This document shows, one piece after another, positions 2,695-63,267 of a stretch of DNA of 64,000 nt. The first letter of the stretch is position 1; each line of letters opens with the position of its first letter. Both the position numbers and the translations under genes were made by a program. The stretch is from NCBI RefSeq assembly GCF_053078305.1, contig NZ_CP166879.1; one strand, 5' to 3'. Under the pieces are notes generated by a model that was not told the DNA's origin, did not search any database, and saw only the letters and a program-made list of their open reading frames with translations.

Positions 2695-4170
2695 TTAAAT
2701 ATGATGAATAATCACTTTGTTGCCCCCCTCGCTTTTCGCTTCGCGTAAGGCTTTATCTGCTTCCGTCATGACAAGCGAGATATTACGCGTGTCACCCGTT
2801 GAAAAAACCGTGCCAATACTGATGGTCATTTGTTCAGGAACATCATATCTGTTACTAAAGCCGGTCAGGAGTTCGACATTTTTACGCATACGTTCCGCAA
2901 TGATTTTTGCCTGGGCACTATTGAGTTCGGTAAATAGCAAGCCAAACACCTCACCCTCCAGTCGCGCTAAAATATCATCGGGGCGGATGCTTTGCTGGAT
3001 AATATCGACAATTGAAACCAGCACTTTATCACCCACACGATGTCCCCATTGGGCATTGATGCGTTTGAACTGATTAATATCAACCAGCATGACACAGAAG
3101 TCCTTAACAACAGGTCGCGACAATAATGACTCTACGCTGTTGAAAAAGTAGCGCCGATTGTAAATATTGGTCAGCACATCATGAACTGCCAGTTTGCTGG
3201 AGAGTTGCAGCTCCTGAAAAATGTTATAAATCAGAAAAGACACAACAAACAGTTTACTGGAGACTTCAATCCCGCGACTGATATACCAGATGGTATAATT
3301 ATACTCATCCAGAGTCAGTAGAAGTAAGTTGCAGCATAGCGATGCCAGACATAATAATGCTATTAACGGCCATAGTTCGCTGGCTAATCGTGTACGCATG
3401 ATAATAAAGAACAGTAAAAATGCCCACAGACAAACCAATATTTTTGTATAGTTGATTCCCCAGGTCGCAGTATGGTTGTCCGGACAGTAATCGACGACAT
3501 ACAAAGAATAGTCAGCGTTATAACTGCTCAGATTGTGTGCCAGAAGGGGAAAAACTAAAAAAGGAATCAGCGCCAGCAACAGAATGCCAGTTTTTTTCTT
3601 ATTGTTGTCAAGGATGTTGTCTTTTCCATAACAAAAGAGCGCCAGCGAGGTTAAACAAATAAAACTGAGTTGGCGGAAAATATAGAAAATAGAAACATCA
3701 TTCGACTTTGTCTGGATCAGTGTACTGCCGTTAATTGGTTTATGGATAATTACAATGGTTTCAACTAAATAGATAAGGCCACTTAAAAATGCAAGGCTTA
3801 AAATGAGTGTTGGTAAAATTTGTTTGTTAGTGAAATATTTCATTAACATGAAAAGAAAAATGACGGCGTTAAGGAAAAACAAAGCCACAACAACCATCAG
3901 GTAATTCATCTGTGGGATGAGTTTTACATTTGTGTTTTCGTTATATAAGGTAGTAATGCAAAATAAAATTAACGTCAGCAATAAACTGAAAATAAAAAAG
4001 CTTTGAGCTTTTAATTTTTGTGTACCCATAGAAACCATAAAAAGGAGAGCAATGTGAGTGCTGGATTTTATTGATGGCAGAGATATATAGTTTTGACCAA
4101 GATCAATTTTCGTTAACGATAAAAAATATTTAAAGAATAACCCCAGGGAAATACGTGTTGACAGAATAAT
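2695..4170 (-). CDS. dgcI: GGDEF-domain protein DgcI/YeaI with degenerate active-site motif (EGEVF); membrane N-terminal domain
   Basis: The ATG-initiated ORF is 2695..4038 (447 aa) and carries RLEGEVF in place of GGDEF. The frame stays open upstream to 4284 with no in-frame ATG/GTG/TTG. The remembered 491-aa length would put the first codon at 4168-4170, which here reads ATT. The start coordinate is therefore uncertain; the stop at 2695 is firm. Confidence 0.8.
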   Translation of the reverse strand: MILSTRISLGLFFKYFLSLTKIDLGQNYISLPSIKSSTHIALLFMVSMGTQKLKAQSFFIFSLLLTLILFCITTLYNENTNVKLIPQMNYLMVVVALFFLNAVIFLFMLMKYFTNKQILPTLILSLAFLSGLIYLVETIVIIHKPINGSTLIQTKSNDVSIFYIFRQLSFICLTSLALFCYGKDNILDNNKKKTGILLLALIPFLVFPLLAHNLSSYNADYSLYVVDYCPDNHTATWGINYTKILVCLWAFLLFFIIMRTRLASELWPLIALLCLASLCCNLLLLTLDEYNYTIWYISRGIEVSSKLFVVSFLIYNIFQELQLSSKLAVHDVLTNIYNRRYFFNSVESLLSRPVVKDFCVMLVDINQFKRINAQWGHRVGDKVLVSIVDIIQQSIRPDDILARLEGEVFGLLFTELNSAQAKIIAERMRKNVELLTGFSNRYDVPEQMTISIGTVFSTGDTRNISLVMTEADKALREAKSEGGNKVIIHHI

Positions 4171-58072: not shown

Positions 58073-60334
58073 TTACGCCGGAATTTTGTCAATCTTAGGA
58101 ATGCGTGACCACACGCGGTGTGCTGCCATCAGCGTTAACAGTTCATCCATAAAACTACCGTCGGCGCTGTCAGCTTCCACAATCCCTTCTTCACCCTGGT
58201 CAGCGACCTTGATTGTTGCTTTAAACTTGCGCGCGTCTCCCGCCAGCGCAATCGGTTTAAGGTGTTTGTAGGCTTCCATCAGGTAGTAGTTGGCATCGCC
58301 GTTGTCAGCGATATCCGCGATATTGCCGCAAGGGACAATGACCGCATCGACCGTCAGCGAAGGCGCACCGGCAAAGGTAGCGGCTATAGGCAACACCGTA
58401 CCGTCATCCGCAGTCACTTCACCCATTCGGGAGTAGAGCAGTTTGGCATGAACGCCTTTGGCCTTCAGGGCCTTGAGAATGGCCAGAAGGTCTGCCGATC
58501 TCACTTCATCATTAAGTAAAATCGCTACCACGCGACCTTTCACATCACCGTCAGGAATGGCGTACAAACTTAAGGATGGATCCTTTTTCAGACCGTTGAC
58601 GTCCGGAGGTGGGGTGATATTCAGCTGGTCATCAGTCAGTTCGATACCGAGATTTTTCGCCACCGCCTGGGCCAGAGTGAGATCAATATGCGCCAGCTGG
58701 TCAACAACGCGCTCACGAATATAGGGACGAACGACTTTGCTTAACTCAAAACTGAAGCCATCGACAATATGACGCTGCTCGAATGGCGTCTGACTTAGCC
58801 AGAACAGACGCGGATGGGAATAATATTCGCCAAAAGATGGACTGCGCTCGCGAACTTTATTTCCTTCCACGCGTTCCTGATATGATTCAAAACCGCCGCG
58901 TTTCGGTCCCGGCGGTGTTTCGCGCGGCCAGTTATCGTTGATCGAGTTCGGTTCGTAATTCGCCGGGTTAGTGTCGATCCCCATACGATGCATGCCATCA
59001 CGCTGGTAGTTGTGGTAAGGGCAGGTCGGACGGTTAATCGGAATCTCATGGAAATTCGGCCCACCAAGACGACTGATTTGTGTATCGGTATAGGAGAACA
59101 AACGTCCCTGCAACAGCGGATCGTTGGTGAAGTCCAGTCCCGGCACGATATGCCCAGGATGGAAAGCCGCCTGTTCGTTTTCAGCAAAGAAGTTATCCGG
59201 GTTGCGATTGAGCACCATTTTGCCGACACGCTGAACGGGCACCAGTTCTTCCGGGATAAGTTTGGTTGGATCGAGAAGATCGAAGTCGAACTTGAATTCA
59301 TCTTCTTCAGGAATCAACTGGAAGCCCAGTTCGTATTCCGGAAAATCACCTGCTTCAATGGCTTCCCACAACTCGCGGCGGTGGAAGTCCGGGTCACGTC
59401 CGGTTAGTTTTTGTGCTTCATCCCAAACGAGTGAGGCTTTACCTGCCAGTGGTTTCCAGTGGAAACGTACAAACGTTGCCTTCCCTTCGGCATTAATCAG
59501 GCGGAAGGTATGAATACCAAAGCCTTCCATGGTGCGGTAACTGCGGGGGATGCCGCGATCCGACATCGCCCACATCACGTTGTGCAGAGTTTCAGGTTGC
59601 AGAGAAACATAATCCCAGAAAGTATCGTGGGCGCTTTGCCCTTGTGGAATTGCCCAGTGTGGTTCTGGTTTTACCGCATGAACAAAATCGGGGAATTTAT
59701 GCGCATCCTGGATAAAGAAGATTGGCGTGTTATTGCCAACAAGGTCAAAAATACCCTCTTCGGTATAGAATTTGGTGGCAAAGCCACGGATATCACGCAC
59801 GGTATCGGCAGAGCCAGCACCACCCTGAACGGTAGAGAAACGTACAAATACTGGGGTGATTTTGTTCGGATCTGAGAGGAAATCCGCTTTGGTGATATCG
59901 CTTAAGCTTTTATATGGCTGGAAATAACCGTGAGCGGCTGATCCACGTGCATGAACAATACGTTCCGGGATGCGCTCATGGTCAAAGTGGGTGATTTTCT
60001 CGCGCAGAATAAAATCTTCCAGCAGCGTTGGACCACGGCTACCGGCACGCAGTGAGTTTTGATCGTCGGCGATGCGCACGCCCTGATTAGTGGTCAGCGC
60101 ATAATTTTCACTGCCTTTGCGTACGTCTTCCAGAGAATTAAGTTTTTCGTTACGCGTATCAGGGGCTTTCAGGCTCCCTGGGGCGGTAGGTTGTGCACCT
60201 GGCGGTGTTGGTTCAGCCGCTGGACGATGAGAGCCGTCCTCAGGTGCCAGTGAGTCCATCCCCGGTTTCGCTTCGCTGGAATCGTGTAGTGGTGACTGGT
60301 GCTGATGTGGGTTCTTTTCGTTTTGTTGCGACAT
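58073..60334 (-). CDS. katE: Catalase HPII (753 aa)
   Basis: 753-aa ORF, recognised as the large-subunit catalase KatE. Confidence 0.97.
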
Positions 60335-60537
60335 TGAACTCGTCTCCTTAATTTATTACTGAAAGGGCCGCTGTTTTGGTCAAAAAACTCTCTAACTATA
60401 GACCACCAGCCAGACCCCGCTTCGGAGACTATTCTGGAAACGGTGTTATGAAATACACGCAAAGCGGGACGTACAGGGGCTAAATCGGCTAAACTACAGT
60501 TTTTCTGATTTTTAATATGCGTTTAGTGAAGCCAGTA

Positions 60538-60780
60538 ATGAAGAAACCGCTCCGCCAGCAAAACCGCCAGATTATTAGCTATGTCCCACGCACGGAACCC
60601 GCGCCGCCAGAACATGCGATAAAGATGGATTCGTTTCGTGATGTCTGGATGCTGCGTGGCAAATATGTTGCGTTTGTACTGATGGGAGAGTCATTTCTGC
60701 GCTCACCGGCGTTTACTGTGCCTGAATCCGCCCAGCGTTGGGCAAATCAGATCCGCCAGGAAGGGGAAGTGACTGAGTAA
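60538..60780 (+). CDS. cedA: Cell-division modulator CedA (80 aa)
   Basis: Internal ATG at 60538 gives MKKPLRQQNRQIISYVPRTEP...; the track ORF starts 21 nt upstream. Confidence 0.8.
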   Translation: MKKPLRQQNRQIISYVPRTEPAPPEHAIKMDSFRDVWMLRGKYVAFVLMGESFLRSPAFTVPESAQRWANQIRQEGEVTE

Positions 60781-61068
60781 GGATTACGTACCTCCCGGTT
60801 TTGCCGGGAGTTACATGGCCTGAAATTTTGTATTTCATTGCTACATTCATTCAAACCACCTGTAACAAAAAGCTGCCTTTGACGATCTATTGCTATAAAT
60901 AAGTGATCTTTTTTCTTTAATTGTTTATTTATTTTAAAATGGTTAAGTTTTGCTAATCATGATGAGCTATTTTTGATAGTTCATCCTGTGGCGTCGCTCT
61001 TAAACTTATATTGTAAATGACTTAGATTTAAATGAGATAATAATTTTGTTAACAATATGAGGCGGGAG

Positions 61069-61872
61069 ATGTTTTCTACAAACTTAATACAGAGTAATTA
61101 TGGTGATTTAAATATTAAAAGCCTGGCTTTCGACTCTTTTAAAGAAAGGCTGCAGTCTACCATGGCGGCACTCACTTTCTTTATATCAACGGGTCAATGT
61201 GACTGCGATGAAATAGCAGAATCAAATTTTAATTATATGATTGCCTATATGTCTAACATTAACTATGATGCCTCAAAGCCAGGAGCGCCAGCACTTAGTT
61301 TTGATACATATCTGCAGGACAATGTTAAATATAGAGTAATAATTAATAATCTTTATGGTAGTGAAATTCGGATAAGAGGTATAAATAAAGATTTTATTGG
61401 AATGGATGTTACTTCTGTATTTCGCCCAGAAAAAATGACCAATTTGATCAGTATAAAAAACAGGTTGGTTATTCACTATTTAAGGACTATATACTATGAA
61501 CAAAATTATATACATCCTGTCGGGAGCATTTTTGCTGCGATTCAAAAAAATGAGAGTCTCCTAAAGTTTCCTTCGATAATATCAATGCTTAATATCAATC
61601 TTCTTTTTAATCCACTAAATCTTCCGGGAATGGGAAGTGGTATACTTGAAGATATTATGAGTATTCCAGATAGTTCACTTAGAAAACGTCTCGGGTATGA
61701 GGTTTTAAGCTTCTCGCTACAGGCACATTCATTGAGCCAGGAATGTATTGATAAGTTGGACATTTTTTTCGCTGACGATCTGTTTAAATATGAGTCAGTA
61801 TGCATCGCCGCGATGGAACATTTAAAAAGTAAGGCAACGGCCCCTATACAAAACGGACCGTTGCCAGCATAA
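61069..61872 (+). CDS. ydjO: Uncharacterized protein YdjO (about 267 aa), AT-rich orphan gene
   Basis: ATG at 61069 preceded by a GGCGGGAG Shine-Dalgarno (the track ORF starts at 61057); very AT-rich coding sequence. Confidence 0.75.
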   Translation: MFSTNLIQSNYGDLNIKSLAFDSFKERLQSTMAALTFFISTGQCDCDEIAESNFNYMIAYMSNINYDASKPGAPALSFDTYLQDNVKYRVIINNLYGSEIRIRGINKDFIGMDVTSVFRPEKMTNLISIKNRLVIHYLRTIYYEQNYIHPVGSIFAAIQKNESLLKFPSIISMLNINLLFNPLNLPGMGSGILEDIMSIPDSSLRKRLGYEVLSFSLQAHSLSQECIDKLDIFFADDLFKYESVCIAAMEHLKSKATAPIQNGPLPA

Positions 61873-61875
61873 GAA

Positions 61876-63267
61876 TTAATGGTGTGCCAGTTCGGCGTCG
61901 TCTTCGCTATCCAGAATGGCTTTATCGGTTTGCTTCAGCCACTGGCTGGTCAGCGTGCCAGCTGTCATCGAGCCACTAACGTTTAGCGCCGTACGGCCCA
62001 TGTCGATAAGCGGTTCAACGGAGATTAACAGCGCCACCAGGGTTACTGGCAGGCCCATCGCAGGCAGCACAATCAGTGCGGCGAAAGTTGCACCACCACC
62101 GACACCGGCAACGCCTGCGGAGCTAACGGTAACAATACCGACCAGCGTCGCAATCCACATCGGGTCCAGCGGGTTAATGCCAACCGTAGGCGCAACCATC
62201 ACCGCCAGCATTGCCGGATACAAACCGGCGCAGCCGTTCTGACCAATGGTCGCACCGAAAGAGGCGGCGAAACTGGCGATGGATTCAGGAACGCCCAGAC
62301 GACGCGTTTGTGCTTCCACATTCAGTGGGATAGACGCAGCACTGGAACGGCTGGTAAAGGCAAACGTCAGCACAGGCCATACCTTACGGAAGTACTTCAG
62401 CGGACTCACGCCATTAATGCCCAGCAGAATGCCATGCACTGCAAACATAATCAGCAGACCGAGGTAGGACGCGACAACGAAACTTCCCAGTTTGATGATG
62501 TCTTGCAGGTTAGAACCTGCAACCACTTTGGTCATTAGTGCCAGAACGCCGTAAGGGGTCAACTGCATGACCAGGCGAACTAGTTTCATCACCCAGCTTT
62601 GCAGGGTATCGATAGCGGTTAAGACGCGTTCACCTTTCGGCGCATCATCCTTCAGCAGTTTCAGCGCAGCTACACCGAGGAATGCGGCAAAAATTACCAC
62701 GCTGATAATTGACGTCGGATTGGCTCCGGTCAGATCGGCAAACGGGTTTTTCGGGATAAAGGACAAGACCAGCTGCGGAACGCTCAGGTCAGAGACTTTA
62801 CCAACATAGTTACTTTCGATGGCGTTCAGACGTGCAGTTTCTGCACCACCCTGAACCAGACCTTCAGCCGTCAAACCAAACAGGTTGGTGACCAGCACAC
62901 CGACCAGCGCCGCAATCAGCGTGGTAAACAAAAGCGTACCGATGGTCAGAAAACTGATTTTACCTAACTGAGATGCGTTATGCAGACGGGCAACCGCGCT
63001 CAGAATAGAGGCGAAGACTAACGGCATAACGATCATTTGCAGCAGTTGAACATAGCCGTTACCAACGATGTTAAACCACTGTACAGAATCTTTAAGTACC
63101 TGGCTGTCAGAACCATAAATGGTATGCAGGGCAAGGCCAAAAACCACACCCATCACCAGACCCACCAGCACTTTTTTCGCCAGACTCCACTGTTTATGGC
63201 GGGTCTGAGCCAGCGCAAACAGCAGTACAACGAACACCACGATGTTCGCAATTAATGGAAAGTTCAT
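61876..63267 (-). CDS. tcyP: L-cystine/H+ symporter TcyP (YdjN), dicarboxylate/amino-acid:cation symporter family (463 aa)
   Basis: 463-aa polytopic membrane ORF, recognised as YdjN/TcyP. Confidence 0.95.

Follow-up and report, generated by a model that had tools for sequence, protein, structure and literature searches.

The ydjO locus of Escherichia coli: a fast-evolving, often-lost orphan gene on an inserted AT-rich cassette bound by H-NS

Promoter islands of E. coli have been described, using the program PlatProm, as regions of at least 300 bp with an abnormally dense arrangement of overlapping promoter-like sites, and the intergenic region ydjO/cedA is listed among them as island 1811053_320 (PMC3661553, Table 1). 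In the same table this island is recorded as bound by H-NS in the ChIP data of Kahramanoglou (MG1655) and of Oshima (W3110), the occupancy being derived from ChIP-chip datasets (code K), and ydjO is classified as foreign by two composition-based methods, the Nakamura 2004 and the Lawrence-Ochman 1998 predictions (PMC3661553). Within the cedA-ydjO spacer, an H-NS site was identified by genomic SELEX, and an in vitro site of the RpoD holoenzyme was assigned to the promoter ATGACT-16-AATAAT (PMC3946193), so that a total of three genome-wide datasets list H-NS binding at this spacer (PMC3661553, PMC3946193). A peak of the RpoS holoenzyme was also located at the start of ydjO (PMC5493296). The protein has been proposed as a 'conserved signature protein' exclusive to E. 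coli and Shigella and present in all of them, and a qPCR assay was built on it (PMC11057252). The view of ydjO as an AT-rich, H-NS-bound and probably foreign orphan gene is, in other words, largely published already; what we add, on the basis of genome comparison, is evidence for insertion of the gene as part of a cassette, for coding constraint and for decay.

We analyzed the locus in a window of 64 kb, the whole stretch of DNA under study, which derives from a non-K-12 strain of E. coli (for the features see Table 1). The gene order in this window, katE, cedA, ydjO, tcyP and ydjM, is that of the K-12 locus of ydjO (b1730, uncharacterised protein YdjO), and the two show no material difference, the DNA being 99% identical and the proteins differing at 2 residues. 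Strain YZMc3-1 carries the segment 60781-61872 at 100% identity, K-12-type strains carry it at 99% under the annotation ydjO, and of the 5426 complete E. coli genomes 4300 have a match of 99-100% to annotated ydjO.

Table 1. Features of the ydjO locus (positions within the 64-kb window).
Feature	Position	Strand	Remarks
katE	58073-60334	-	
cedA	60517-60780	+	
Variant cedA tail QEGEVTE plus stop, left junction	60760-60780	+	Always with the cassette
Stable hairpin after cedA, without U-tract	60781-60820 (core 60792-60810)	+	-19.2 kcal/mol, z = -3.8 against shuffles
cedA-ydjO spacer, 288 bp, AT-rich; published 'promoter island' and H-NS/RNAP binding region	60781-61068		GC 32.6%; PMC3661553 Table 1, PMC3946193 Table 2
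9-bp direct repeat TGACGATCT, first copy	60880-60888	+	Second copy at 61773-61781
Conserved 20-nt imperfect palindrome ATGAGCTATTTTTGATAGTT	60962-60981	+	No other block of the spacer is invariant across all E. coli alleles plus E. albertii
Sigma-70 promoter-like site ATGACT-16-AATAAT	61017-61044	+	Consensus scan; listed as ydjO constitutive RpoD promoter in PMC3946193
Shine-Dalgarno sequence GAGG of ydjO	61059-61062	+	6 nt 5' of ATG 61069
ydjO CDS, 267 codons plus stop	61069-61872	+	RefSeq annotation
9-bp direct repeat TGACGATCT, second copy	61773-61781	+	Pairs with 60880-60888
tcyP intrinsic terminator in ydjO codons ~255-266	61820-61865	-	Stem GGCAACGG/CCGUUGCC at 61833-61865, tail UUACUUUUUAAAU at 61832-61820
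tcyP (ydjN), convergent neighbour, right junction	61876-63267	-	Stop codons of tcyP and ydjO 3 nt apart

An earlier note, prepared from the sequence alone, had described ydjO and its upstream region as strongly AT-biased, and this was borne out by computation: the GC content over 60781-61872 is 34.3%, against 49.5% for the whole window and 52-53% for cedA, tcyP and katE. This is the lowest value among 1092-bp stretches of the 64 kb, since only 3 of 2517 sliding windows of this size (mean GC 0.495, sd 0.045) showed an equal or lower value, each of them overlapping the ydjO locus. The bias covers both parts of the segment, the ydjO CDS having 35.0% GC, with a GC3 of 31% vs 58% for tcyP, and the spacer falling to 29.2% within 60829-61068; the AT run quoted in that note, ttttttctttaattgtttatttattttaaaatgg, was located at 60909-60942. 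The length of the upstream region, given there as 276 bp, had to be corrected to 288 bp, because the 267-aa product starts at ATG 61069, the RefSeq start, and the figure of 276 bp fits another in-frame ATG, further upstream at 61057, from which a product of 271 aa would result. The same region had been called a long AT-rich leader, of which the AT-richness stands and the RNA leader probably does not: since the single promoter candidate that has been mapped is 25-52 nt 5' of the ATG, most of the region is probably untranscribed upstream DNA.

In AT-richness, restricted distribution, H-NS occupancy and prediction as foreign, the ydjO locus resembles the known targets of H-NS silencing and the promoter islands. 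It differs from them in that a simple sigma-70 scan and a count of the H-NS motif do not single the spacer out. The high-affinity H-NS motif TCGATAAATT was not enriched, with 3 matches at up to 2 mismatches where the window average predicts 1.8, and the spacer contained no match at this threshold; the sigma-70 scan, which employs a simple consensus and an algorithm unlike PlatProm, gave 4 promoter-like sites in 1.8 kb vs 4.8 expected, and given the difference in algorithm this does not refute the published island. A search of the spacer against Rfam returned only a chance match to a snoRNA (E = 0.096). In the literature mentioning ydjO we found no report of its derepression in an hns (or hns stpA) mutant, and a literature search for b1730 returned nothing relevant. 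As to the proposal that ydjO is an H-NS-silenced, horizontally acquired gene, binding of H-NS is upheld by the published data and insertion by the genome comparison described below, and a foreign donor was not found. From the published binding we infer that ydjO is kept transcriptionally silent by H-NS under ordinary growth.

The borders of the inserted DNA were set by comparison with B2 strains. On the left side, sharp divergence of the window from B2 is limited to the final ~20 nt of cedA, which encode QEGEVTE in place of the ancestral-type QENEVEE, and on the right side identity returns at the tcyP stop codon, the outer flanks showing 1-2% divergence. Because the divergence spans the cedA tail to the tcyP stop, we place the cassette at approximately 60760-61875. 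The comparison shows that this ydjO cassette of ~1.1 kb is an insertion relative to an ancestral arrangement in which cedA and tcyP converge directly, and that it took the place of the last ~20 nt of cedA together with a spacer of ~50 bp carrying a shared two-way terminator. The tail QENE(V/I)EE is present at this junction in B2 E. coli, E. whittamii and other Escherichia, and other genera carry related QENE-type tails; the variant tail (GAAGGGGAAGT...) is common to the window, other ydjO-positive E. coli and E. albertii. The B2-type spacer of 46 bp, which contains a single hairpin between an A-run and a T-run, was found in 1124 of the 5426 complete E. coli genomes (~21% without ydjO), and these together with the 4300 ydjO-positive genomes make up 5424 of the 5426. 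Examples of the empty site are the ST131 strain CU568-3, strain 83972 and BEN2908, all of which we take to be B2 strains. Strain HH97 appeared to offer another 'empty site' with a 100-nt C-rich filler; this form, limited to 2 genomes, probably arose through faulty assembly or as a private event and does not represent the general empty allele.

Outside Escherichia, no relative of YdjO was found at the cedA loci of Citrobacter, Salmonella, Enterobacter, Kluyvera, Leclercia, Atlantibacter and other genera. The distance between cedA and tcyP is 50-110 bp in nearly all of these loci, and a bidirectional terminator composed of an A-run, a GC hairpin and a T-run was seen at every locus inspected. The short arrangement is also found in E. 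whittamii and three other Escherichia lineages, again with the ancestral terminator intact, and because of this intact terminator the empty sites cannot represent deletions of the cassette. The phylogenetic distribution, a check called for in the earlier note, thus proved to be restricted to Escherichia and patchy within the genus, as expected for a xenogeneic gene: the cassette is missing from every cedA locus examined outside Escherichia, from four Escherichia lineages and from 1124 E. coli genomes, and its carriers are E. albertii, with the left junction seen in E. coli, the non-B2 E. coli, and one cryptic lineage that retains a remnant. A single simple gain does not fit this pattern, because the cassette occurs in E. 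albertii, non-B2 strains and the cryptic remnant and is missing from B2, E. whittamii and the three other lineages. Either the cassette moved among Escherichia lineages through recombination in its flanks, or its presence and absence represent a very old polymorphism. The term 'horizontally acquired' is supported in the sense of inserted DNA of anomalous composition, and no source for it was found.

Within the cassette, ydjO is a real protein-coding gene under weak constraint, and it is confined to Escherichia. When ten other alleles were each compared with the window sequence, pN/pS was 0.26 in the annotated ydjO frame and 0.93-1.35 in four of the five other frames, with about 1 in three of these, and the fifth, the antisense frame that shares third codon positions with ydjO, gave 0.36. 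Substitutions in ydjO favour third codon positions (22/36, 25/44 and 64/129), and its pairwise omega (NG86) ranges from 0.14 to 0.34, with 0.03-0.06 for cedA and tcyP. An open frame of 267 codons is expected by chance with a probability of ~1e-9 at a per-codon stop probability of 0.074; not one in 200000 shuffles remained open, and 11-33 stops interrupt the other five frames across ydjO.

At the same time the gene is often broken. Among 17 complete genomes, 10 carry an intact ydjO (267 aa), 5 an annotated pseudogene and 2 a stop at codon 261, and 38 metagenome contigs comprised 24 intact copies, 8 disrupted ones and 6 with the stop at codon 261; altogether, disruption affects ~24% of the sampled copies, and the stop at codon 261 shortens another 15%. 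Insertions of IS elements into ydjO have also been reported (PMC10044804, PMC3486847). In Escherichia sp. MOD1-EC7003 (locus L004), ydjO is gone through an 893-bp deletion exactly between the two copies of TGACGATCT, a microhomology deletion. Because it is lost or broken in many lineages, ydjO must be regarded as dispensable. These disrupted and truncated copies, the tolerated IS insertions and the absence from 21% of genomes would also suit a functionless relic, whose decaying ORF is still open in many strains only for want of time, and so would the comparison between species: from E. coli to E. albertii, dN of ydjO is 0.68, close to the dS of 0.58-0.69 in the flanking genes, of which dN is 0.01-0.03, and protein identity is 34% for YdjO vs 93-98% for the neighbours. 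Since its dN is about the dS of the flanks, the protein has changed about as fast as neutral sites in the neighbouring genes, with the frame open in both species. We nevertheless consider a relic unlikely, because low pN/pS is confined to the annotated frame and its mirror frame, substitutions are biased to third positions, and full-length ORFs have been kept in both species through near-saturated divergence in stop-prone DNA of 34% GC.

With respect to its relatives, the claim that the 267-aa product has no recognisable domain held, as YdjO, a 30-kDa cytoplasmic protein, matched nothing significantly when Pfam, NCBIfam, PHROGs and PADLOC were searched for domains and profiles with E = 1 as the cut-off, PADLOC giving no match at all and the best match in PHROGs being at chance level (E = 0.37). 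HMMER search of 1.84 billion cluster representatives and two word-indexed searches of 5.8 billion clusters returned sequences from E. coli and Shigella only, except for two, P0034 and P0074. P0034, which aligns without gaps over 254 residues at 27% identity, was examined as a distant homolog and rejected, since in silico A-to-G conversion of ydjO raises the identity to 66%; it is an artefact of sequencing after chemical or enzymatic conversion. P0074 is the E. albertii ortholog (hypothetical protein, 257 aa; 34% identity, BLASTP E = 2e-42), a member of a cluster of 125 sequences. It agrees with ydjO in its position between cedA and tcyP, the variant cedA tail, the conserved 20-mer, the embedded tcyP terminator and a GC content of 34%, and differs not only in amino acid sequence but also in a spacer that is unalignable except for the 20-mer and in a different hairpin after cedA. 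No allele of E. albertii type was detected by blastn in E. coli genomes. The designation of ydjO as an orphan accordingly stands at the level of the genus, homologs being confined to E. coli/Shigella and E. albertii and the frame being under coding constraint, and fails as exclusivity to E. coli and Shigella.

No donor or outside homolog of YdjO was found in 50,697 phage records, 72,556 plasmid records, IMG/VR, the 1.84 billion representatives and the 5.8 billion clusters; three apparent 'plasmid' matches to ydjO turned out to be mislabelled chromosomes of 4.8-4.9 Mb. YahL and YjfZ, products of orphan marker genes of similar length, were tried as paralogs and showed no similarity (BLASTP E = 0.22 and 2.2), and sequence and profile searches of the PDB gave chance matches only. 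The structure prediction proposed in the earlier note was carried out: the AlphaFold model, built on an alignment of 5 sequences, has a pLDDT of 62 overall and a moderately confident alpha+beta N-terminal domain (residues 18-143, pLDDT 70-84), and no convincing structural neighbour of the model was found. This lack of homologs outside Escherichia could point to origin de novo, or by heavy remodelling in place, from AT-rich non-genic DNA within the genus, the AT-richness then arising because mutation is biased in DNA that is silent and bound by H-NS; stalled promoter complexes have been proposed to accumulate AT (PMC3661553), and the hairpin of the tcyP terminator codes for the C-terminal 13 residues, as if the ORF ran on to the next stop. 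We hold such an origin to be quite unlikely: the 1.1 kb of extra DNA needs a source that an ancestral spacer of only ~50 bp does not offer, the cedA tail changed along with the insertion, and an alpha+beta domain of the predicted kind, even from 5 sequences, would be unusual for a young de novo protein.

Variation among alleles bears on the kind of selection. Nucleotide diversity is 6.3% for ydjO and 4.9% for the spacer, 4-8 times that of the flanks, and the ydjO alleles are mosaic, with a mean allelic dS of 0.19 vs 0.03-0.05 in the flanks and a dS of 0.87 over codons 1-165 in allele P0006 (locus L058). Such values, with the patchy distribution in Escherichia, could be produced by diversifying or balancing selection on a conflict-type gene, for instance one for phage defence, abortive infection or a toxin, and many defence islands are, like this locus, AT-rich and bound by H-NS. 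This reading is in our view very unlikely, because YdjO matches nothing in PADLOC or PHROGs and is encoded by a single gene without a partner, the divergent tracts are high in pS and pN alike with no sign of omega above 1, and the raised dS can be explained by absence of constraint on codon usage.

At the ends of the cassette, two hairpins were found. The hairpin that the earlier note had seen after cedA is present, its core consisting of CUCCCGGU (60792-60799), the loop UUU and GCCGGGAG (60803-60810), and among the E. coli alleles the stems are invariant and the loop is variable. Its 3' flank, UUACAUGG, contains no U-tract and the terminator scan made no call on it; it is not a canonical intrinsic terminator. 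The hairpin inside the end of ydjO has the properties of a rho-independent terminator on the tcyP-sense strand, a GC-rich stem-loop followed by the U-rich tail UUACUUUUUAAAU, and a sub-hairpin of it was called terminator-like by the scan. In E. coli its folding energy is -22.4 kcal/mol (z = -4.4) in tcyP sense vs -16.4 in ydjO sense. It is conserved in E. albertii (-20.4 in tcyP sense vs -16.3 in ydjO sense), where the sole difference within the stem allows G.U pairing only in the tcyP sense. That the DNA of the cassette matters mainly in cis, serving between the convergent genes cedA and tcyP as a buffer that is coated with H-NS and holds two separate terminators, with an incidental ORF, is highly improbable, for even though a shared bidirectional terminator was exchanged for the cedA hairpin plus a separate tcyP terminator, and in serum the ydjO signal drops along with those of tcyP and the CysB regulon (PMC4145685; this could be read-through from tcyP if the assay was not strand-specific), it leaves the frame-specific purifying selection unexplained, and B2 strains and all other genera manage with a 50-bp terminator.

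Taken together, we consider it probable, with good confidence, that ydjO is a fast-evolving and often-lost gene which resides on an inserted AT-rich cassette (~60760-61875) and is subject to xenogeneic silencing. According to this model, the cassette brought a new cedA tail with the hairpin behind it, 288 bp of AT-rich DNA in which a weak sigma-70 promoter (61017-61044) precedes ydjO, the ORF of 267 codons, and a replacement terminator for tcyP within the last ydjO codons. H-NS would nucleate and spread on the AT-rich region, and ydjO would be silent in ordinary growth as a consequence. The source of the cassette is probably one not yet sampled, and within Escherichia the cassette probably spread or persisted by recombination via the conserved flanks.

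The conserved palindrome ATGAGCTATTTTTGATAGTT, ~100 nt 5' of the ydjO start codon, is shared with a second orphan gene. It recurs without mismatch 81 nt 5' of yneK (b1527), where it overlaps the ptrR (yneJ) stop codon; yneK lies between ptrR and ydeA, at a chromosomal site distinct from that of ydjO. Like ydjO, yneK is AT-rich (39.8% GC), without a Pfam domain and restricted to E. coli and Shigella. Among the 120 metagenome contigs with ATGAGCTATTTTTGATAGTT, 43 have it in the ydjO context and 66 in the ptrR-yneK context, and the remainder comprises one ydjO of E. albertii, one unrelated AT-rich sequence and otherwise short or chimeric contigs; no copy was found in phage, plasmid and viral-contig collections. 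The gene yneK is cut to a stub of 102 nt in ~1128 genomes, a number near the 1124 genomes without ydjO, although only the totals were compared, and both genes are missing in the one strain checked, the B2 strain 83972. YneK was rejected as a paralog of YdjO, since BLASTP, hhalign and a Smith-Waterman shuffle test were all non-significant, and so was a wider homology of the two promoter regions, because the blastn value of 4e-6 is driven by an exact 21-mer and the remainder gives z = 1.0. The shared ATGAGCTATTTTTGATAGTT could be a common operator or a recombination scar. It is possible, and we suggest it tentatively, that ydjO and yneK form a small hidden regulon, or have a shared origin, marked by this element 81-107 nt 5' of their start codons, with a putative DNA-binding protein countering H-NS there.

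The distribution of ydjO bears on its use as a marker as well. The proposal that YdjO is present in all E. coli and Shigella is at variance with the empty site in 1124 of 5426 complete genomes, and its exclusivity to them with the syntenic ortholog of E. albertii (E = 2e-42). The sites of the qPCR primers and probe (window positions 61711-61809) are missing from B2 loci. B2 strains include major extraintestinal pathogens. The marker will under-count, because ~21% of complete genomes, including ST131 and other B2 strains, lack ydjO.

As the core reading of the locus was already published, little changes with our analysis, and the ydjO locus is largely ordinary. It is nonetheless a clean natural case in which an insertion displaced a shared bidirectional terminator and the terminator of the neighbour ended up within a coding sequence. 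The element ATGAGCTATTTTTGATAGTT shared with yneK offers a concrete handle on the inducing conditions of two uncharacterised genes, and if it is a common operator, the conditions under which ydjO and yneK are induced would become testable.

One and the same 20-nt imperfect palindrome, identical at every position, lies upstream both of ydjO and of yneK, a second AT-rich orphan gene of E. coli and Shigella located downstream of ptrR (yneJ) (see Table for coordinates). This palindrome is also kept ahead of the ydjO ortholog in E. albertii and of a 68%-identical yneK-like gene in locus L081. A 4-codon mini-ORF, ATG AGC TAT TTT TGA, can also be read within the 20-nt sequence. Among complete E. coli genomes, about 1128 have yneK cut down to a 102-nt stub, a total almost equal to that of the genomes missing ydjO (1124), the comparison being of totals only; in the B2 strain 83972, both ydjO and yneK are missing.

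Coordinates of the shared palindrome, the deletion-flanking repeats and the yneK stubs
Feature	Sequence	Position
20-nt imperfect palindrome, ydjO copy	window	60962-60981
20-nt imperfect palindrome, yneK copy	L201 (K-12 ptrR/yneK)	1925-1944
9-bp direct repeat TGACGATCT, two copies	window	60880-60888 and 61773-61781
yneK 102-nt stub	L204 (strain 83972)	2471-2572
yneK 102-nt stub	L202	3006-3107

Individual variants were also identified at and next to the ydjO site. In Escherichia sp. MOD1-EC7003 (L004 5300-5460), an 893-bp deletion between the two 9-bp TGACGATCT repeats removed ydjO, leaving the tcyP terminator together with the final 32 ydjO codons. Strain HH97 (L001 4047-4165) carries, where ydjO is expected, about 100 nt of unusual C-rich filler (ccctccccacccccccacccgtccccccc...), which was detected in 2 genomes only and is possibly an assembly artefact. 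In E. albertii (L071 1-2840), katE is absent upstream of cedA, and a chb-type gene (YdjC family) adjoins cedA in its place.

The top promoter-like match of the ydjO region, TAGACA-18-TAAAAT (10/12; window 61226-61255, minus strand), is intragenic and antisense to ydjO. Spurious intragenic promoters are a known tendency of H-NS-bound AT-rich genes, and the location of this match is consistent with such an origin. The stretch ranking second in AT-richness within the window (2695-4038, about 34.7% GC) is cdgI (yeaI), a diguanylate-cyclase-like gene, which is likewise included in the promoter-island list of PMC3661553 but, unlike ydjO, was found in 5409 of 5426 genomes. PMC4145685 reports that ydjO is down-regulated in serum along with its convergent neighbour tcyP (ydjN; both genes within window 61069-63267) and the CysB regulon; since the two stop codons are separated by 3 nt, the ydjO signal could represent tcyP read-through antisense to ydjO, and not ydjO mRNA.

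The YdjO qPCR primers and probe published in PMC11057252 map to window 61711-61809. Primer and probe sites were found neither in the B2-type loci L002 and L003 nor in the E. albertii locus L071, and their lack in B2 makes this assay blind to roughly 21% of complete E. coli genomes. Three PLSDB plasmid records (NZ_CP134663.1, NZ_OL790696.1 and NZ_CP141089.1) turned out to be E. coli chromosomes of 4.8-4.9 Mb, all with ydjO at its usual locus. The candidate distant homolog P0034, a 299-aa 'protein' of a public cluster, was rejected, as it is ydjO translated from A-to-G-converted reads; conversion artefacts of this kind can be mistaken for distant homologs.
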